NCBI GenBank assembly: GCA_951406725.2
Contig: OX597839.1
Location: 5,952,001 to 6,016,000, forward strand
DNA: 64,000 nucleotides
Origin: Octopus vulgaris
Taxonomy: Eukaryota
Direction of reading: 5' to 3'
Below the pieces are notes generated by a model. The model did not search any database. It saw only the letters and a list, made by a program, of their open reading frames with translations, and was not told where the DNA came from. This document shows, piece after piece, positions 632 through 44,027 of the stretch (its first letter is position 1; the number at the start of each line of letters is the position of its first letter). Both the position numbers and the translations under genes were made by a program.

Positions 632-1429
632 TGTGTGTGTGTGTTTGTGTGTGTGTTTGTTTGTGTTTGTGTGTGTGTGTTTGCGTATATATATGTATGC
701 ATGTTATTGTATGTATGTATGTATATATATGTATGCATGTTATTGTATGTATGTATGTGTGTGTATATATATATATATGTATATAATGTATAAACTGAAA
801 GAGAGAGTAAGAGCAATGAAAGAGGAGAAAGGGGTTAGACATTAAATATACTAAAAGAAAATTGCTGTCGTTTAATCCTTGTCATCATGATCTCATTATC
901 TATGTCAAAAAAATCAACCATTCTCAGGCACACACACATGCACAAATTCATGCTTCCCACTCATACACACACTCATAGTTCACATACACACACATACATA
1001 TATTATACATACAGATGCACAGGCATGTACACACACATACACATATGTTCAGACTCACTGGCATATTATATGTGTATATGTATATGTACGTACACACACA
1101 CAAACACAAGCATCCCTATTACAACTTGTTGACAGTCAATCTCAACAGACTGGGTTCTTCCGAACAGGAAGTTGTATATTTTGTTTGTAGTCGATGCCAC
1201 TTGGATGGATGGAGGGGGAGAATGAGGAGGAAAATGAAGAGAAATCTGCTCAGTGCCTTCCTAAGCTGATCCTGACTTTAGGATAGGGTTTAAATCAGAG
1301 CAGTTAATACTGTGTTGATGATGTTCTTGTTGTTTAGCACCCTTGGTGGTCCTGCACCACCATGATCAAAAGAAAGCAAGCCATGGCCACCCTCTCTGAC
1401 TTTTAGGAATAGCATGACCCAGCTGTGTC

Positions 1430-2035: not shown

Positions 2036-2178
2036 CGGGGTTTTGCCATTTTCCGCAATAATTCCGGCGCTCGTATTAATTTGTCCAGAGTTTTGACAAT
2101 TGCATTAAATTTTGGTCGATGGTTTCTTTCTCGTTGCCAACAATCAAGCATCAATTGGTGGATTGCTTCAGGACAATC
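2036..2178 (-). CDS. Eph: Eph kinase C-terminal exon (143 nt, phase 0-2)
   Basis: tttttgtag|GAT...CG|gtgagt; [47 protein letters not shown](R). Confidence 0.96.
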
Positions 2179-5202: not shown

Positions 5203-5397
5203 CATAGGTGGAGGAAGACGATATCCTTTTTCAACTGCCTTTATAACGTCCTGGTTAGACCAGTTCCAGTAGGGTCGCTCACCGTATGACATCACTTCCC
5301 ACATTACAACACCATAACTCCAGACATCTGAAGCTGACGTGAATTTGCGAAATGCAATAGCTTCTGGTGCTGTCCATCTGACAGGGATTTTGCCACC
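5203..5397 (-). CDS. Eph: Eph kinase exon, C-lobe (195 nt, phase 0-0)
   Basis: tttag|GGT...ATG|gtgagt; [65 protein letters not shown]. Confidence 0.97.
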
Positions 5398-6588: not shown

Positions 6589-6702
6589 CTTAGTTGTATA
6601 GGCCCCATCTGTAGTATCATTTTCCACCTCTCGAGAAAGACCAAAGTCGGCCACCTTGCACACCAAATGTTCATTCACCAATATATTACGGGCTGCAAGG
6701 TC
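6589..6702 (-). CDS. Eph: Eph kinase exon, catalytic and activation loop (114 nt, phase 0-0)
   Basis: ttttgcag|GAC...AAG|gtgagt; [38 protein letters not shown]. Confidence 0.97.
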
Positions 6703-9059: not shown

Positions 9060-9158
9060 CCTGTGTACATAACTCATTTCTGACAAATATTTCATTCCAG
9101 ACGAAATGCCCCTCATCATACCAATTAATTGAAGATAGGAAAATGTTCCGTCATTGTT
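9060..9158 (-). CDS. Eph: Eph kinase exon (99 nt, phase 0-0)
   Basis: ttccag|AAC...AGG|gtaaga; [33 protein letters not shown]. Confidence 0.96.
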
Positions 9159-10283: not shown

Positions 10284-10662
10284 ATAATTGTTTTGAATTA
10301 ATCATATATTATCTTGTAGCTTTGAAATTTTGATAATGCGATTGTATATTTTTAGAATGACATTGTAGGGTAGGTGCAAGAGTTTTGGCTGCTCTTTCTT
10401 GCAGCCAAATTCCTGTTGATTACCAGGAAAGAAGTCCACCCTTTTAATAGGTATGTAAATTCAAACTGTATTGTACATAAAACAGCAGTGTGTGATTTGA
10501 TGGAGATTTGGCTGCTCTTTCTTGCATTCCAATTGGTTACATGGAGAAAAGCTCACCTGTTTTATGGCTGTATGCATTCAAACATTAATGATTAGAAAAT
10601 TCCAAAAATGAATAATAAATTATATAAATGGCCAGAAAAGCAATTCAAGAAATTCTACTCAC

Positions 10663-10724
10663 TCTTAAGAAAGTATCCAAGGAGCCATTTGCCATGTATT
10701 CTGTTACTATCATAATGGGATGAC
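10663..10724 (-). CDS. Eph: Eph kinase exon, hinge/gatekeeper (62 nt, phase 1-0)
   Basis: ttttgcag|GT...AGA|gtgagt; (S)HPIMIVTEYMANGSLDTFLR. Too short for the ORF track. Confidence 0.96.
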
Positions 10725-10764
10725 CTGCAAAAGAAAAATATAAAAATCAATGTTAATAATAATA

Positions 10765-11165
10765 AACCTATCTACTAAAGGCACAAAGCATGAAATTTTA
10801 GGGGAGGGAACCAGTTGATTACATTGACCTCAGTGTTCAACTGGTACTTAATTTATCAACCCTGAAAGGATGAAAGACAAAGTCAACCCCTGGCGGCATT
10901 TGGACTCAGAACATGAAGACAGCTCACTGCCTCAATAATAATAATAATAATCTTTTCTACTAAGGGCAGAAGGCCCGAAACTTTGTGGGAGGGGACTAGC
11001 TGATTCCATCGACTCCAGTGTTTGACAGGTACTTAATTTATTGACCCCGAAAGGATGAAAAGCAAAGTCAACCTTGACAGAATTTGAACTCAGAATGTAG
11101 CAGTGGGCGAAATACTGCTAAGCATTTTGTCCAGCATGCTAACGATTCTGCCAGCTAATTGCCCT
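10765..11165 (-). mobile_element. Two adjacent older family D-like SINEs
   Basis: gaaaggatgaaa...aaagtcaac...tttgaactcagaa blocks with (aat)n tails. Confidence 0.72.
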
Positions 11166-11189
11166 AATAATAATAATAATAGTAATAAT

Positions 11190-11500
11190 CACTGTGATTA
11201 CCGTGACCGACCGGGCTATCAGATGTTGCTACACATAGCTGGTCACAATGCGCTTTGCATTGTTTTAGCCTTCAAATGACGCCACCCCGCTGGCTAAGCG
11301 AGCAGGCCAACAGAAGAAAGAGTGAGAGAAAGTTGGGACGAAAGAGTACAGCAGGGATCGCCACTACCCCTTGCCGGAGCCTCGTGGAGCTTTAGGTGTT
11401 TTCACTGAATAAACACACACAACGCCCAGTCTTGGAATCGAAACCACGATCCTACGACTGCGTCTCCATTGCCCTAACCACTGGGACATTGCGCCTCCCC
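11190..11500 (-). mobile_element. tRNA-derived SINE, C-type head with a third tail type
   Basis: Head and core shared with the 21524 copy up to actttctctcactct, then unrelated 3' sequence. Confidence 0.8.
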
Positions 11501-11953
11501 ACATGATAATGTATTCGTTGATATACAGTGCCTACTAATAAGGTGGGGTGGTCATAGTTGGAATACCTTTGATAATAAGACTGCTCAATCAATTTCCATT
11601 TACAGAGTCAAAGAAGGAGCTTTTGCATGGTCAATATTCATGTTGGCTATGGCAGTGAAACACCGAAAGACAAAAGCGACATTGGACAACGTGATAAATG
11701 TTCTGGTGATAGTATAATGAAAACTAGAGTCCGCTGCCCTAACCACTGAGCCATTGCGCCTCCACAATAGTAATAATAATACTATAAAATAGATGTGTAA
11801 GATACAAATACATATGCTGAGAGAGTTTTTTTTTTATATTTAGAGGATAGCTAAATTGTATAGTTTAACAATTTATTTCACTAGCTGGCTTCAAGAGGCT
11901 CACATCACACACAAATACTACAAACAGTGGCCAAAAGAGCAAAACAACCATAC

Positions 11954-11971
11954 ACGAATCTGTCGCTCTGA
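11954..11971 (-). CDS. Candidate 18-nt kinase-insert microexon (phase 1-1), (I)RATDS(C)
   Basis: tttcttgctttcttttttatttttctag|TCAGAGCGACAGATTCGT|gtatgg. Confidence 0.45.
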
Positions 11972-12659
11972 CTAGAAAAATAAAAAAGAAAGCAAGAAAA
12001 AAACATAAACAAAACACAGTCGAAAACACACATAAACTGACATGAGCATCTATCTATACTCTGGCCTGGATGGGAGAGCCGAGTTACATAATGATGTGTA
12101 ACAATTACTTAAATGAGCTGTGACAGCTAAATTGAGAATAACCCGCGCCACCAACTGACGGAAACAAAACAAAAAGCAAAATCGTTGCCAGCCCTACTAC
12201 ATCTCCCAAGTGTCCCAATGTCCAATATCCAGGCAATCTGTCGACCCACCCTGGGTAGATAGGATACACGGAAAGACAAACTTGAGGACAGAGAAACAAA
12301 TATTAAAACTGCCGGGAGAATGTAGGAAAGGACGCAAGCGTTGAAAACTAGGTTGATAATAATAATAATATAATAATAATAATAATATAATGATATAATA
12401 ATAATAATAATAAAATAATAAAAATAAAAGAATAATAATAATAAAATAATAAAAATAAAATAATAATATTAATATAATAAAATAATAATAATAATAATAT
12501 AGAATGTAATGAAGGTGAGTGGGACAGGATTAGATAGTTTATAAGGGAGACAGAGAGAGACTGAATGTAAGAGAGTGAGGTGAGAGTACGATAAAGAATT
12601 ATGTAAGATGTTGGTGAAGTGAGGAGAGTAGAGAGATAGAGAGAAAGTGTGGGAGAGTG

Positions 12660-12810
12660 AGTGTGTGTGTATGTACATCTGTTTCTGTGTGTGGTGTGTG
12701 TGTATGTACATCTGTTTCTGTGTGTGGTGTGTGTGTATGTACATCTGTTTCTGTATGTGGTGTGTGTGTGTATGTACATCTGTTTCTGTGTGTGGTGTGT
12801 GTGTGTGTGG
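12660..12810. repeat. ~33-bp minisatellite, 4 copies
   Basis: gtatgtacatctgtttctgtgtgtggtgtgt repeated. Confidence 0.88.
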
Positions 12811-14356
12811 TATTGATTGGTGACAAGAGTAGGTGGATGGAATTGGCAAGAATTGGCAACAGAACTCAGACAATACAACCGAAATTAAGACAATTCTGTT
12901 GCTCTCCTACGCAACTCACCGTCATCTCTCTCTCTCTCTCTCTCCCTGTCTGTCTGTCTCTCTCTCTCTCACACACAAACACATACACGGAGCTTGTATT
13001 CCTTTTCTGGTTTATATTTCTGTCAACAGCTTTACATTTCTACTTTTTTTCCTTTTAGCAGATTCTGTTGTGCTTTTCTTCATCTCATCCTCTCCATCTT
13101 TCTCTCATACATACACTACATGACATCTATGTCTGTCTCTCTCACACTTTCACACACTACACCTCTCTCTCTCTCTATCTATCATACCATGTATGTCTCT
13201 ATCTCTCTGTATCCCACGTGTTATCCTTTTCTCTCTATCACATACTTCATTTCTCTCTCTCTCTCTCCCCCCTACTTATTTATTTCTCCTTGTCACACAG
13301 TGTCTCTCTATTTTATTTACCCCTTCTAGTCTCTTTCTCTCCTTTTCCTTTCCTACTTCATCTCTGCTTGTCTCTCTGACCCCTTCTGCCAGTCTCTTTC
13401 TCCCACATATATCCTTGTGTCCATCACTTCCCGTCTTTTTTTCCAATCTCTCTCTCGCTCTCCTTCCTACCCGCATTTGCTTTCTTATTTTATCTGTCTC
13501 TCTCTCTCTACCACTTTCTGTCTTTCTCTCTCTCTACCCCACTATCCACCTCGCTCTCTCTCACTCTCACAAACCCTTAAGTTCTCTACCCAACATATCC
13601 ATCTCTGCCTCACACATGTACATACAGTCTCTCCCTCCCTTTCTCTCACCACTCTCTCTCTCCCTCAAATTCTCACTTTATGCTAATATCACTGTTTCAT
13701 TTTGACCCCTGTCCATTTCGCCCCCCCCCCCCTCTTTTCTCCACACCCTAAATTCTAACATAAACAACTCTTCACCCACTCTTTATTTAACACCTCATAT
13801 TTAATACCCCTTCAGTAGGCCCTCTCCCCACTTTTTCTCCCCTCCCCCGGTCTTACCCTGAAACATTTACAGTCTCTACCCTCTCGCCACCCTTTTCACT
13901 CCGACCCCTACCCCGAAACTCAACCATCCTAAATCTCTTACTCCAAGTCTCGATGGACCTCACATCCATTCCTCACCTTCATCTTGTACAAATCGCCACC
14001 CCACCCCACCCCGCCATCAATGGTTCTTCTATCTCTCTGCAATATCTCTGACAACTGCCTTACACCGACCCCCCCCCTAACTCTTCTACCGTTCGTTCAA
14101 CCTTTTCTCTCCCCCCCCCCGCATTCCCCACCACCACCAACAGCCCTTTCCACTCCATCATCATCCGCCAATTCCATCCACAGTCTCCCAGACTACCAGA
14201 CAATGGTACAAGATAACATGCCAGGAGCAAACTGAAGACAATTCCTCGTTTATTTAATTTCAAAAAAATCATTCACATCATTGAATTACGTTAGTTCATT
14301 GATGGCAGCCTGTATGTATGTATGTGTGTATGTATATATGGCAGCCTGTATGTATG

Positions 14357-14387
<31 letters not shown>

Positions 14388-14792
14388 GTATGTATATATA
14401 TGTATATATATATATATGTATGTATGTATATATGGCAGCCTGTATGTATGTATGTATGTATGTATGTATGTATATATATATATGTGTGTGTGTGCATATA
14501 TATGCCAGTGTCTCTCATATACACACATGTATGCATGTAGGTCTCTCTCTCTCTCTCTACACACATATTTACACTCAGCTACACACAAGTGTGTGTATGA
14601 ATATATACATGTATATGTACTTATGTATAAAAGTGTGTGTATATGCCAGTCTGTCTCTTTTTGTCATACTCTTGTGTGTATATATGAATTCGTCAATTTC
14701 TCATTGTGTGGATGGGGATATACATACATACATATATATATACATATATAAATACACATGTGCGTATATGTGAGTCCTTCTCTTTGTGTGTG

Positions 14793-14825
<33 letters not shown>

Positions 14826-14930
14826 ATATATACGTGTGTGTGTGGATGTATGTAGCTTTGCACATTCTTTACTGCAGCATTAAATTTGTTCCTGAATTTG
14901 CCAGTTTGTTTTGTGTCAATAACACTACAC

Positions 14931-14961
<31 letters not shown>

Positions 14962-15764
14962 AACATGTAAATAGAAGAACCAAAAGATTTTTCCAATTTT
15001 CCAACAGCTATTCCAACCTCACCACCAATCGTACACACACACAGACCCGCACGACCGGCAAACACATACATGACACTAATTACACGAACATAATACACAT
15101 ACATACGCACACACACACACACACACACACATCTGCAATTATACACATGCAAAGAAACATACACTGAACAACCATACACACATACATGTTCACATACAAT
15201 GACATTTGTGTGTATGTGTGTATATATATATATATAGGTAGAGACGGACACACTGACACACACACACTGTGACAAACACATACAGATAAACATTTAAGTA
15301 TAAACATTTTTTTTCAATTTTCCAAATGCCTTCCTTCTCTCTAGCTCTTGTCTTCTCTCGTGGTTTCCCTGCCTCCTTCCATATATATTATATACACACA
15401 TAAGTGCCACCATTTCCCAGGTTATCTACTTCACTAATTTAACTAAATACTCGTATTTCACATAAAATATATTTATTTATTCATATTTTTCTTTCATTCA
15501 TTTTATCATTTTTCCAGATTTTCTTCCATTTGCCCCAATTTTTTTCTTCTCAGTTACACATGCATATCTATTGTACATGTATATATGTAAGTATATATGT
15601 GTATGTTCATACATACACATTTATGTATATATCTATGCGTATGCGTATGTATATGTGCATATTTGTATATGTATGTATGTATATATATATAGATAGATAG
15701 ATAGATAGACACACACATACACATAATTTGTAATAGTAATATTTTGAAATAATTTAGTACATAC

Positions 15765-15773
15765 GTTTCGGGT
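15765..15773 (-). CDS. Candidate 9-nt kinase-insert microexon (phase 1-1), (N)PK(R)
   Basis: atgcatttccttttatattctacacag|ACCCGAAAC|gtatgt. Confidence 0.55.
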
Positions 15774-16005
15774 CTGTGTAGAATATAAAAGGAAATGCAT
15801 CTGTTATGTAATATCTTCCTCAGTTAAAAATTTCAAATTATCACAACTTCTATGACTCAATGCCAATACAAACTGGCCAGTTCAGACTTCACTTACGCAA
15901 ATATTCCAACAATGATTTAGAGTAATTTGCTATATTTGACTTAAATCAAAAATTCTGGTACCATGCACTGCTGCTTAGCATAACACAAAAAATATATATA
16001 TATAT

Positions 16006-16365
16006 ATCATCATCATTGTTCAACATCTGCTTTCCATGCTAGCATGGGTTGGATGAATGACTGAGGGCTGGCGAACCAGATGGCTGTACCAAGCCTCAAT
16101 CTTGATCCGGCAGAGTTTCTACTGCTGGATGCCCTTCCTAATGCCAATCACTCCGAGAGTGTAGTGGGTGATTTTACATGCCACTGACACGGGGCCAGTC
16201 AGGTGGTACTGGCAGCGACCTCACTCGAATTTTTTACACATGCCACCAGCACAGGTGCCAGCAAGGCGATGCTGGTAATGATCACACTCGAATGATGTCT
16301 TTTACGTGCCACCGGCACGGAGGGAAGATACCTGCTCTGGCAACGATCATGCACGGATGGTGCTA
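16006..16365 (-). mobile_element. Repeat family B
   Basis: Same subfamily as 2257 and 19850. Confidence 0.86.
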
Positions 16366-17190
16366 TATATAGAGATATATAGGGATTAATAAATCTAGGT
16401 AGATATCTATAGGGCACACAATTTCGTAAACTACATTAAACAATCAGGATGCTAAATGATGATGATGATGATGACGATTCTTTGTAGTAAAAATGATGTA
16501 GTTACTGAATGGCCTAATACTGGCACACAGCACAGACTGTCATTACTAAACCAGTCTGCAAGGGGTTAACATGGTTCGAAGTTGTAAGCAAGTATTGTAT
16601 TTTGTGAACCCTGCTGTGATGAGAAATTCTGAGAGACAGACAGACAGAGAGTGAATGCATGTGAGGGTGTTTTGTTTTTAAGAATGGTGGGCACACCTAC
16701 TAAAAAAAGCACCATGGGGACAGAGTGAGAGAGACAGAGAAGGAGAGAGATGGGACAGAACAAGGTGGAGGTAGTGTTTTCCTATTTGGTCAGGTGGTGG
16801 AGGAGAAAGACAATAAAATACCCTTACCTTCCTCCTAAAACAATACTAAAATTAAGATAGTTTGAGGATAAGATACTGTGTTTAAGATGCAATAGCAATG
16901 ACACACAAATTACAATACCAACAAAAAACAACACTAATAGTGGCACCAGTTCCTATTATATCTGTGTGTGTATATGTGTGTATATGTGTATTTGTGAGTG
17001 TGGATAGATAGATAGATAGAGAGATAGATGTAAAATGGTGCAAGAGATCTTGTATTTCAAGAATGGAAAAGGGTTAAAAAAAAAAAAAAAAAGCAGGGTG
17101 GGTGATGAAGATAAAAATTTACAAAAAGCAAAGCATAAAAAAAAAACAAATGCTCCAGAGAAAAGCATGAAAAAACCCAAAAAAATCCAC

Positions 17191-17211
17191 CTTGACAGTT
17201 AAACATCCGAC
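17191..17211 (-). CDS. Candidate 21-nt kinase-insert microexon (phase 1-1), (S)RMFNCQ(G)
   Basis: cattcatttgttaag|GTCGGATGTTTAACTGTCAAG|gtggat; the AAG acceptor is weak. Confidence 0.28.
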
Positions 17212-18011
17212 CTTAACAAATGAATGTTGTATGAAATTAAATGATAAATGCTTGATAAAATTAATAGATAATTAGCTGATAAATAGAGCATGTTTGACAA
17301 TGAAGTGGTGGGGAGGCCATTTCACTCTGACGTTGAGGGTAGGGGTAAAGTGATTACCAAGAATGACAATGTGCATAAATATATATATACATAAATATAT
17401 ATGTGCGTGTGTATATATAGGCTTGTTCATTCATCATCCCAGTTAAAGATTAACATCGTTATCCAGTTTCCATCAATTTTTCATATAATTGCTTCTTTTC
17501 CAGTCGTAGTTTTTTTTTTTTTTTATATATTCAAATATATATATTTTTTTTTTAAAAATTTCTTCTGTTTTCTTATTTCTTCAATTTCTTGAAAAAATTC
17601 TTCTTTGTTTGCCTGCAATTGTACTCCCAATCACGACATTTCTTTCCTCTCTGCTTTCTGAGTGTCCTTTTAGCTACAGCTATCCATCTTCCTTGGAGTA
17701 AATTTTAAACTTCACTTCGCTCCGCTTGTCACCGGCAAATAACATCTTGTTTCCCTTGGGCAGTTGGAGGCATCATGTCCAGCTAAATTCCCCCATCAAA
17801 CCACATTATTATTATTAGGCAGACCATAAAATGGGATTTACGATATTGTAAGCAGCATTCTGGATTAACTTATCCTATACACACACACATAAATACAAGC
17901 CAGTGTATACATACATATATCTAAATACATATGCAAGTATGTATGTGTGTCTGTGTGTCTATATATATATATATGGTACACACACAGTCACATTTTGAAT
18001 GTATATATAAA

Positions 18012-18167
18012 TCATCATCATCATCATTTAACGTCCGTTTTCCATGCTAGCATGGGTTGGACGGTTCAACTGGGGTCTGGTGCAGCCTTCTGGCTTCCCA
18101 GACCCCAGTTGAACCGTCCAACCCATGCTAGAATGGAAAACGGACGTTAAATGATGATGAAGATGAT
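18012..18167. repeat. Near-perfect inverted repeat made of two family B tails (~68-bp arms, 17-nt loop)
   Basis: 18012-18080 is the reverse complement of 18098-18167 with ~2 mismatches. Confidence 0.92.
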
Positions 18168-18186
18168 ATATATATACATACATTCA

Positions 18187-18404
18187 AAATGTGACCACGT
18201 GTGTACCGTTGGCGATTTTTTTTTTTTTTTTTCCCCTCCGTCTTCCCTTCTCTGGATCTTTCCTTTTCCTATGTTTCTGACGAAGAGCTTCGCTTGAAAT
18301 GTAAAACCCTCCTTCTTCCCTTCTTTCCTGAGCGTCCAATAATACTATATTTGTTCCATGTCCTCGCGTTGTTGTGTTTTCTCTGGGTGTTTTCATGTTT
18401 GGAT

Positions 18405-18410
<6 letters not shown>
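18187..18410 (+). mobile_element. Hammerhead-bearing short repeat (Penelope-like terminus or retrozyme), inserted in a TA microsatellite
   Basis: Near-identical reverse-complement copy at ~47948-48150; both contain the HHR motif. Confidence 0.65.
18273..18307 (+). ncRNA. Minimal hammerhead motif, second copy of the 48040 family
   Basis: GUUU-CUGACGA-A-GAGC(UUC)GCUU-GAAA-UGU-A-AAAC. Confidence 0.55.
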
Positions 18411-18442
<32 letters not shown>

Positions 18443-18939
18443 TGTGTGAGTGTGTTGTGTGGGTGTGGGTGTGTTTCCGTATCACCATTTGACAATCGAG
18501 GTCGGTGTGCTTAAATCCCTATAACCTAGCAGCTCAGCAAAAGAGACTGATAGAATAAGTACTTGGCTTAACAAATAAGTTCTGGGATCAATTTGTTTAA
18601 CTTTAAAAAAAAATTTTTTTTAAGCGGTGCTCCAGCATGGCCACAGTCAAATGACTGAAACAAGTAAAAGAATGACAGAACAGATTCGATGCACAAATAA
18701 CAAACTTGTTTAATAAATATTGCTTTTAAAAAGCATAAACCCCAAAATTGGTCGTGGCGGTGGGGTGGGGAGTTGATGGTGGTGGGGTGGGAAGTCGATG
18801 GTGGTGGTATGGTTATGGTGATGATACTAGTCTCTGTTGTTAACGATGATGAGGAAACTGCTGATATTAAGTAGGATTAGAATGTGGTGTGCCATATATG
18901 GTGGCACAGTGCAGTGGCTACATCAAACACCTTACTTAC

Positions 18940-18975
18940 ATTCCGACTGATATGGCCATATGGAGAAATACTTCA
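18940..18975 (-). CDS. Candidate kinase-insert cassette exon (36 nt, phase 1-1), (M)KYFSIWPYQSE(C)
   Basis: ttttattccgttactgtttatttctag|TG...AAT|gtaagt; open in the kinase frame. Confidence 0.62.
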
Positions 18976-19317
18976 CTAGAAATAAACAGTAACGGAATAA
19001 AAAAAATGGAATAAATAAACAAAATTACATTTTAAAAAAAATATCTTTCCAAACATAAATATATTAAACCACATTTTTATCTATCTATCTATCTATCTAT
19101 CTAACTATCTATATATATATATACCGGAGTAAACACATAAATGTGAAACAAGGTGGTAAAAAAGAGTACTCAAATACCAGTGGTAGAGTAATATGCAAAA
19201 ACTGTCTGACGAACGGGAACATGAAACTGAGAGTAACAGGTTTTGTTGAATTTTCTGCTGCTTTCAATAAAGTATCTATCTATCTATACATACATATAAA
19301 TATATACATACATATAC

Positions 19318-19353
<36 letters not shown>

Positions 19354-19450
19354 ATACACATATATATACACAGATCGCCATGTTGATTCGTTAGCTACTG
19401 CACGCATTTTTTTTCTCTCCTTCTTTCTGTGTTTTTTTTCTCTCTGTGTA

Positions 19451-19488
19451 TCTTTCTGTTGAAGAGTGTAGGCTCGAAACGTTAAAGA
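19451..19488 (+). ncRNA. Degenerate minimal hammerhead motif
   Basis: UCUUU-CUGUUGA-A-GAGU(GUAG)GCUC-GAAA-CGU-U-AAAGA; one core substitution. Confidence 0.45.
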
Positions 19489-19849
19489 CTTGTTTTATTT
19501 ATATTTCCTGAGCGCCATACTAATACAATTGTTCGTTTGTTTTCCACCTGCCTTCGTCTTTTGTCTATTTTCATAAAGCTTCCTGTTATATATATGCATA
19601 CATACATACATATATACATATACATATATATACATACATACATGCATGCATATATATATATATAAAATGGGCTTTTACATGGCTTCCTTTTCCAAAATTT
19701 TACTGATAAGATACTAATTGCTAGTTGGGACATTATTTCGTTTTGAAGCCATTATATACTGCAAAGTATATCAAAGGTTTATTAGTCATATTATAGCAGC
19801 AAAATTAAATGTAGCGTTTCTACCAGCAATTAATATGTATCATTTGCGA

Positions 19850-20315
19850 GGACTGGCTTCTGTGCCAGTGGCACTTAAAGGGTACCGTTTGAGCGTGATC
19901 GTTACCAGCATCGCCTTACTGGCACTCATGCCCATGCTAGTAAGGTGCCAAGACCACCATCCGAGTGTGATTATTGCCAGAGCAGCCAACTGGCTTCCAT
20001 GCCAGTGGCACATAAAAGGGCACTATTCGAACGTGATCATTACCAATGTTGCCTTACTGGCACCTGTGCTGGTGGCATGTGTAAAAAGATTCGAGCGAGA
20101 TCGTTGCCAGTACCGCCTGACTGGCCCCCGTGCCGGTGGCACATAAAAGCACCCACTACACTCTCGGAGTGGTTGGCGTTAGGAAGGGCATCCAGCTGTA
20201 GAAACTCAGCCAAATCAAGATTAGAGCCTGGTGCAGCCACCTGGTTCACCAGCCCTCAGTCAAAATCGTCCAACCCATGCTAGCATGGAAAGCGGACGTT
20301 AAACAATGATGATGA
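19850..20315 (+). mobile_element. Repeat family B
   Basis: Internal modules, conserved block and tail. Confidence 0.88.
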
Positions 20316-20656
20316 ATAGCCTTATATCGCTAAACATAGTGACTATTTAAGCCATGCATTCATGGATAGTTAATGGACTGGACATGATACTGAAGAATAA
20401 GCAATAACTTCTGAAATATGAATATACACCTTTACCTATTTTTCTATCTTTGATCTCATTGTTTACGTAGATGTATTTGTATATGAAATGTCTTGACTTT
20501 CATTGCCTGCTCTGAATTCTATAGAATATCTGTAGATATAACATAAGAGCTACAAGACATTGGTTAGTTAACCTGAGGCTATTACATAAGTTACCAGTCT
20601 AAGGTAGAATGGTATGGAATTATATTTAAAACCAAGTAGCTGTAAATTAACCAATT

Positions 20657-21045
20657 AGGCGCAGGAGTGGCTGTGTGGTAAGTAGCTTGCTAACCAACCA
20701 CATGGTTCCGGGTTCAGTCCCACTGCGTGGCATCTTGGGCAAGTGTCTCTGCTATAGCCCCGGGCCGACCAATGCCTTGTGAGTGGATTTGGTAGACGGT
20801 AACTGAAAGAAGCCTGTCGTATATATGTATATATATATGTGTATGTGTGTGTGTTTGTACCCCTAGCATTGCTTGACAACCGATGCTGGTGTGTTTACGT
20901 CCCCGTACCACTTAGCGGTTCGGCAAAAGAGACCGATAGAATAAGTACTGGGCTTACAAAGAATAAGTCCCGGGGTCGATTTGCTCGACTAAAGGCGGTG
21001 CTCCAGCATGGCCGCAGTCAAATGACTGAAACAAGCAAAAGAGAG
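20657..21045 (+). mobile_element. SINE family A (tRNA-like head, cttgggcaagtg core, internal TA/TG microsatellite), full length
   Basis: More than ten copies in the window share the head aggcgcaggagtggctgtgtggtaag and/or the tail gcatggccgcagtcaaatgactgaaacaag. Confidence 0.9.
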
Positions 21046-21225
21046 TTAACCCTGTCTGCACTGATACCTTCAAAACCAAATGTTTCTCATATACACAAAA
21101 ACCAACATCCAATAAAGAAAAAAGAAACAAGGACAATAAACAACAATATAAATACAATAATGAAAGAACTTTCTTCCATTTGAACCCTTTTCTACGAAGT
21201 GAAAAATAATTAAACAGAAACTTAC

Positions 21226-21411
21226 TTTTAGTTACTACTCCTTCTAAGAAGATCACATTAGCATCTTCGAACTGACCCATAATACTAGCTTCTGTGAGGA
21301 AATCTAACCGATTCTTTTCTGTTGCTCCTGGTTTTAACGTTTTTATAGCGACCGTCATATCTTGACGACCAGGCACACGAAGTTTCCCCTTGCAAACGTC
21401 GCCGAATTCAC
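21226..21411 (-). CDS. Eph: Eph kinase exon, N-lobe (186 nt, phase 1-1)
   Basis: ttttccag|GT...AAAA|gtaagt; [62 protein letters not shown]. Confidence 0.97.
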
Positions 21412-23788: not shown

Positions 23789-23932
23789 CTCCTCCAAGAA
23801 CTGACTCAATAGTAATATGTGAGGAGTCAATTTCTCTGGTGAACTCCCTGACAGCTTGGTTAGGGTCTTCATAAGTATGTGGGTCTATGTACGACTTGAT
23901 AGAGCCTGGGGGTTGAAATAGAGGCACGGTCA
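23789..23932 (-). CDS. Eph: Eph exon: juxtamembrane tyrosines to Gly-loop (144 nt, phase 1-1)
   Basis: ttttcag|TG...GGAG|gtaagg; encodes [49 protein letters not shown]. Confidence 0.96.
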
Positions 23933-36185: not shown

Positions 36186-36227
36186 TTTTCTCACCCATCC
36201 TGTCGGCCCATATTAAACGGCTTAAGC
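36186..36227 (-). CDS. Candidate juxtamembrane cassette exon with two in-frame donors (33 or 42 nt), xLSRLIWADRM(GEK)
   Basis: tttcccctctcttacatttatag|GC; donors G|gtgaga (exon end 36195) and A|gtgagt (exon end 36186), both phase 1 and open. Confidence 0.6.
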
Positions 36228-43985: not shown

Positions 43986-44027
43986 TGCCCCCGTTTGTTT
44001 GTGTTTCCATCTGCGGACACTGAATAA
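43986..44027 (-). CDS. Eph: Probable juxtamembrane exon (42 nt, phase 1-1), xIQCPQMETQTNGG
   Basis: Strong acceptor (poly-T/C tract ending ccccccag|) and consensus donor A|gtaagt; open, and joins the 23932 exon as A|TG = Met. Confidence 0.7.

Follow-up and report, generated by a model that had tools for sequence, protein, structure and literature searches.

A 10.5-kb intron of the Eph receptor gene of Octopus vulgaris very probably contains one alternative cassette exon of 36 nucleotides (nt) rather than an array of microexons. The intron (positions 21225 to 10725) belongs to a window of 64,000 nt (contig OX597839.1, positions 5,952,001 to 6,016,000; G000:C26:5952001-6016000) of the 2.8-Gb genome, in which the cytoplasmic exons of the receptor are on the minus strand. 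A preliminary description of the intron listed units of 36, 21, 33, 9, 12, and 18 nt and proposed that they form a combinatorial, possibly neuron-specific, system of inserts in the kinase domain. All six units are indeed preceded by AG and followed by GT on the minus strand at the positions given there and are free of stop codons in phase 1. The presence of a real alternative exon in the intron was upheld, since RefSeq isoforms contain the 36-nt exon, and the multi-unit array was not, with one of the six units supported.

The 36-nt exon has canonical AG and GT splice sites, preserves phase 1, and contains no stop codon. In O. sinensis, isoforms X1 and X3 (XP_036369580.1 and XP_036369581.1) contain a 12-residue insert that exactly matches positions 18975 to 18940; in O. 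bimaculoides, X1 and X3 (XP_052832973.1 and XP_052832975.1) contain the same insert with one Tyr-to-Phe change. The X2 isoforms of both species skip the exon. RefSeq variants rest on introns defined by RNA sequencing. The junction is covered in 21 of the 23 cephalopod records; this insert was present in 4/21, a different 12-residue insert in 1/21 (squid), and no insert in 16/21. The matrices used to score splice sites were built with the gene's own acceptors (n = 16) and donors (n = 15), for which leave-one-out scores ranged from 1.7 to 20.6 (acceptors) and from 4.5 to 12.6 (donors). The 36-nt exon, which is unique DNA in the genome and is preceded by an AG-free zone of 69 nt, scored 7.9 (acceptor) and 9.5 (donor). 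It is the sole unit of the intron combining an acceptor of ≥7.5 with a donor of ≥9, and no equally strong in-frame unit was found in any background set. From these sequences and gene models, the 36-nt exon is very probably spliced.

Identification of the gene as a cephalopod Eph gene was confirmed by sequence identity and fold matches, the Eph kinase sequence, the fold, and the juxtamembrane tyrosine motif all being present. The 186-nt exon upstream of the intron is 100% identical to the O. vulgaris Eph record P0005. The rest of the receptor is located upstream, where record P0133 aligns exon by exon along the same contig; exon mapping with P0133 and the Pfam domains of P0005 showed that this gene also contains the exons for the ligand-binding, fibronectin, transmembrane, and SAM parts. 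Searches of the genome, which give lower bounds, detected one Eph locus. The intron was described as long in comparison to the other kinase introns (1.2 to 3.0 kb), and this was measured as stated (2,377, 1,504, 2,357, 1,191, and 3,024 bp). Its length is nevertheless no evidence, because introns located upstream in the same gene reach 47.7 kb and because 53% of the intron is similar to repeats or microsatellites found at other places of the locus. An Rfam scan of positions 10600 to 45000 gave no match. Elsewhere in the gene, tandem acceptors located 6 nt apart (L002, ~926 to 931, minus strand) account for a two-residue (VP) difference among the O. vulgaris models, between fibronectin domains. 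The features are collected in Table 1.

Table 1. Features of the Eph locus of O. vulgaris and the SRRM_C exon. Positions are those of the window unless another locus is given.
Feature	Position	Strand	Support or remark
Cassette exon A, 42 nt, in frame, AG/GT	43986..44027	-	Counterparts across protostomes
Cassette exon B, 42 nt, in frame	36186..36227	-	Only in cephalopod records
Constitutive exon with juxtamembrane tyrosine motif YIDPHTY	23789..23932	-	
Constitutive kinase exon, 186 nt, ends with VVTK (beta4), phase-1 donor	21226..21411	-	Mapping to Eph proteins
Alternative cassette exon, 36 nt, in frame, net +12 residues in the beta4-beta5 loop	18940..18975	-	RefSeq isoform match
YCAY-rich stretch located directly downstream of the 36-nt exon that might be a Nova-type enhancer	18640..18939	-	Partly CCA/CAT low-complexity
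21-nt unit, likely pseudo-exon	17191..17211	-	Acceptor 1.6, donor 2.5; unique DNA
Copy of a dispersed ~270-bp repeat with the 33-nt (15929-15897) and 9-nt (15773-15765) units	15730..16000	-	
Unique 575-bp block with the 12-nt (12154-12143), 18-nt (11971-11954), and 27-nt (12308-12282) units	11771..12345	-	
Constitutive exon, 62 nt, beta5, gatekeeper, and hinge	10663..10724	-	
Constitutive kinase exon	9060..9158	-	
Constitutive kinase exon, catalytic loop and DFG	6589..6702	-	
Constitutive kinase exon	5203..5397	-	
Kinase exon, last one inside the window	2036..2178	-	
Exon for part of an SRRM_C (eMIC-type) domain	L030 1500-1640, G000:C25	+	Pfam match

The location of the insert between strands beta4 and beta5 held both in an alignment with EphA3, in which the insert opened a gap of 12 residues directly after VVTK, and in an AlphaFold model of P0127. 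This model, obtained with a 53-row alignment, had a mean predicted local distance difference test (pLDDT) score of 67.6 and a predicted template modeling score of 0.57. Five strands of the N-lobe were kept, strands 126 to 130 and 149 to 153 flanked residues 135 to 144, which had pLDDT values of <50, and the best fold matches were Eph kinases, with template modeling scores to the target of up to 0.86. The model thus predicts a kinase core that stays folded and an insert that forms a flexible loop at the surface. The full-length model without the insert reached a mean pLDDT of only 30.6, too low for a comparison. According to excerpts of PMC11398868, the beta4-beta5 region coordinates helix alphaC in MET. 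An optional 12-residue loop at this position would tune kinase regulation or partner binding; being aromatic and bearing tyrosine, it might alter the regulation of alphaC or act as a docking site.

The UGC trinucleotides reported before the 9-, 12-, and 18-nt units are present, and their interpretation as a signature of neural microexons controlled by eMIC was not retained. In the available parts of PMC12148930 and PMC4387716, SRRM4 is described as binding UGC 2 to 20 nt upstream of the exon, and the legend in PMC4387716 gives eMIC-dependent microexons a length of up to 27 nt. Fly eMIC exons display extended AG exclusion zones and strong CUAAY branch points (excerpts of PMC8797185 and PMC10551640). 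The UGCs of the 9-, 12-, and 18-nt units are located at -26, -24, and -23, respectively, outside the published window. UGC was present between -30 and -4 for 43/170 strong background acceptors and for 3/6 units (P = 0.17). The 36-nt exon has neither a UGC nor a CURAY branch point upstream and exceeds the 27-nt limit, with which only the unsupported 9-, 12-, 18-, and 21-nt units comply. A CURAY branch point within 150 nt was found for the 21-nt unit only, and the AG-free zones of the 18-, 12-, and 9-nt units extend over 65, 39, and 27 nt. A single SRRM_C match above the Pfam cut-off was detected in the genome (G000:C25); since an exon for this domain is encoded, an eMIC program is possible in principle in octopus.

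Under the position rule of Nova and Pasilla, a YCAY cluster located just downstream of an exon enhances its inclusion. The 300 nt following the 36-nt exon contain 22 YCAY motifs, a density that is reached by 15/609 sense tiles (top 2.5%) and comes partly from low-complexity sequence, versus 1 to 7 motifs after each of seven constitutive donors. Inclusion of the 36-nt exon would therefore more likely depend upon a Nova-type downstream cluster than upon eMIC.

The five other units are likely to be chance pseudo-exons. Acceptor and donor scores were 1.6 and 2.5 for the 21-nt unit, -7.8 and 6.4 for the 33-nt unit, 6.6 and 6.8 for the 9-nt unit, 12.9 and 5.2 for the 12-nt unit, and 15.9 and 3.2 for the 18-nt unit, so that the 33- and 18-nt units each have one splice site, and the 21-nt unit both, below every real site of the gene. 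The 9- and 33-nt units are repeat-derived. The ~270-bp repeat in which they are embedded gave at least 58 matches including itself (40 of 362 candidates scored), the others being 70 to 84% identical. Nine of 10 copies compared aligned over the 9-nt unit; UGC was present in 6/9 and the pair of AG and GT in 2/9. Several other copies matched in two pieces, some of them inverted. The strong acceptors at 12154 and 11971 are located in the unique 575-bp block, which also contains an additional in-frame candidate of 27 nt (acceptor, 7.7; donor, 5.5). A frame-shifting 7-nt unit (16828 to 16834, minus strand) has the best donor score of the intron (10.8) and may be a chance match or a poison microexon. 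The peptides encoded by the five units and by the 27-nt unit were present in 0/475 proteins compared. A search of short protein fragments retrieved no cephalopod fragment among the best 120 of 225 matches, and a search of long proteins retrieved no new cephalopod cluster among the best 120 of 231.

At thresholds of 6.2 (acceptor) and 4.5 (donor), set by the real sites, the intron contained four loci, all in frame (4/4), versus 2/19 in frame in the sense background (15 blocks of ~10 kb, 150 kb) and 2/8 in antisense (16 blocks). The excess was concentrated in the unique 575-bp block. In-frame candidates are thus denser than in the sense background, in favor of the preliminary description. In the control comparison, the intron read in antisense contained an in-frame 33-nt unit with UGC (15554 to 15586) scoring 19.5, versus a maximum of 19.0 among the five units.

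Inserts at the same junction were found in 31 of 438 spanning proteins, 407/438 being insert-free. The insert-bearing records belonged to Octopus (n = 4), Doryteuthis (n = 1; +12 residues), Magallana/Crassostrea (n = 11; +11), Mytilus (n = 9; +5), Lineus (n = 3; +5), and Littorina (n = 2; +2); one further record resembled a retained intron. Every named genus also has insert-free cluster members. The peptides are unrelated between squid, oyster, mussel, periwinkle, and nemertean, and several of these inserts look like the products of shifted splice sites, judging from their residues. An upstream alternative acceptor at 10724, as the oyster and mussel inserts would suggest, was rejected in octopus, where the eight open codons upstream contain no AG. 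The vertebrate EphA6 insert placed at the VVTK junction in the preliminary description was found neither in the open literature searched nor among 146 further representative proteins.

We consider it just about probable, taking both parts together, that the intron contains one optional 36-nt loop exon tuning kinase activity or partner binding and five chance pseudo-exons. Several observations weigh against this reading. Support for the 36-nt exon comes from database gene models whose underlying evidence is not visible, and it is missing from the Argonauta model and from all four models of O. vulgaris. The insert peptide is not conserved beyond Octopus, since the squid insert shows no evident sequence in common with it, and one change in 13 residues is indistinguishable from neutral drift. 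The P0127 model is mediocre and gives no information on activity, and the indication of Nova control is weak because the YCAY stretch is partly of low complexity. Without the 36-nt exon, the Poisson probability of the in-frame excess was 0.003 to 0.15 at four thresholds for an expected in-frame share of 0.25, and 0.0004 to 0.07 with the in-frame rate observed in the background; with the repeat-borne unit also removed, it was 0.02 to 0.11 at three thresholds, all these values being uncorrected for the selection of the intron. Given this residual excess, another of the units may be genuine, and exons of 9 to 18 nt escape annotation pipelines.

The 36-nt exon might be spliced as tolerated low-level noise, i.e., as a young in-frame exon that has no selected function in an insertion-tolerant loop. 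The unrelated squid peptide, the O. vulgaris models lacking the exon, and the predominance of insert-free proteins are in line with this possibility, as are the inserts of other lineages, which appear to start or end like borrowed splice-site sequence. Set against this, the frame and the consensus donor are kept in this genome, the exon is modeled in two other species, and a 69-nt AG-free zone and a YCAY cluster flank it; noise is a less probable explanation that retains some weight. The existence of at least two further microexons (12, 18, 27, or 9 nt), combining with the 36-nt exon in neurons under the control of Srrm234/eMIC, appears improbable. The further loci are in frame in 3/3 cases versus 2/19 in the 150-kb sense background (Fisher's exact test, P = 0.006), the acceptors of the 12- and 18-nt units are strong and located in unique DNA, and an SRRM_C exon is encoded, but this P value is uncorrected for a choice of the intron made by eye and depends upon matrices of just 16 acceptors and 15 donors. 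None of these units occurs in the 475 proteins, their UGCs are outside the 2- to 20-nt window, no CURAY branch point is located within 150 nt, the 9-nt unit belongs to a repeat, and the 18-nt donor scores below all real donors. Finally, it is very improbable that the acceptor at 11971 opens an alternative last exon (11860 to 11971, minus strand) encoding a truncated, kinase-dead receptor: although this acceptor is the strongest of the intron, is followed by weak donors only, 34 open codons, AATAAA 94 nt downstream (AATAAA occurring within 150 nt for 0/31 background acceptors scoring ≥12), and a stop codon, the pattern was noticed post hoc, no record has such an end, and 31 equally strong, apparently unused acceptors are present in 120 kb of background.

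The juxtamembrane region contains a combinatorial system that is better supported than the array proposed for the kinase loop. Among the proteins of the squid cluster, P0134, P0136, and P0139 contain neither exon A nor exon B, P0137 contains exon A only, P0135 and others contain exon B only, and P0142 contains both, so that all four combinations are present. Exon A is 85% identical to its counterparts in P0137 and P0142 and 23 to 54% identical to those of other protostome records. Counterparts of exon A are both included and skipped in oysters, mussels, scallops, gastropods, a chiton, Lingula, and Lineus, and insects and crustaceans have a segment of 16 to 17 residues at the same position. Because identity is just 23 to 54%, homology to the arthropod segment is deduced from position and motif. 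Records with exon B came from octopus, Argonauta, and squid only. In two other Octopus species, the RefSeq models start at an internal Met of exon A, treated as the first coding exon, thereby hiding its strong acceptor and its nature as an internal cassette; exon A is missing from the O. vulgaris models. Exon A is unlikely to serve as an alternative first exon in view of its acceptor score (16.7), its in-frame length of 42 nt, and its internal location in squid proteins. Arthropod Eph records (P0090, P0092, P0401, P0412, and others) have a second optional juxtamembrane segment of six to nine residues before the exon A counterpart, and bivalves and Lingula display a two-residue (GE) variation at the upstream donor.

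Through exons A and B, the inner part of the receptor encoded by the single octopus Eph gene likely exists in several versions, and combination with the 36-nt exon could raise the number of cytoplasmic forms to as many as eight. The Eph receptors of vertebrates number 14 (excerpts of PMC10084454), versus the one locus found here. Located near regulatory parts of the kinase, the three short in-frame cassette exons offer a concrete way, open to testing, in which isoforms could be diversified in the neural wiring of cephalopods. A broader scenario, doubtful in its entirety, is that octopus diversified Eph by splicing and not by gene duplication, with exon A of ancient protostome origin, the cephalopod-restricted exon B, the kinase-loop exon of Octopus, and perhaps a 12- or 18-nt microexon being switched in neurons to give at least eight forms, and with the beta4-beta5 tuning site independently recruited by several spiralian lineages. 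The public Octopus annotations examined either mis-model exon A or lack it. Automated annotation already contains both exon B and the 36-nt exon, the single exon to which the finding in the kinase loop reduces. No description of the octopus exons was found in the open literature on cephalopod Eph splicing and Eph inserts, most subscription journals being outside this scope, and the accessible parts of PMC11703226, PMC6040699, PMC2121056, and PMC10084454 do not mention them.

The closest known system is provided by the RefSeq Octopus Eph isoforms themselves (XP_036369580.1, XP_036369581.1, and XP_029651492.1; XP_052832973.1 to XP_052832975.1), which derive from the same gene, include or skip the 36-nt exon, and contain exon B; they differ in being truncated, with a start in exon A, and the O. 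vulgaris models lack both exon A and the 36-nt exon. Microexons controlled by SRRM3/4 (eMIC) share with the octopus exon a short in-frame cassette encoding a surface loop, a long AG-free zone, and a regulator domain encoded in the genome. Unlike them, the octopus exon has 36 nt, no UGC, no CURAY, and a consensus donor. The EphA6 insert and chicken Cek5+ are other optional in-frame inserts of receptor tyrosine kinases, which our searches did not confirm. The kinase inserts of TrkC, known here from the title of a reference, are likewise optional in-frame cytoplasmic inserts of a receptor tyrosine kinase, with no claim of a sequence relationship. Drosophila Eph has a 48-nt alternative exon, DmeEX0004299, which table S2 of PMC8797185 assigns to group ASE and not to the eMIC-dependent exons. 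As in octopus, this is a short alternative exon in a single Eph gene, and its length fits the 16-residue juxtamembrane exon found in insects at the position of exon A. It differs from the 36-nt exon in its location in the juxtamembrane region rather than in the kinase loop and would be identical with that insect exon.

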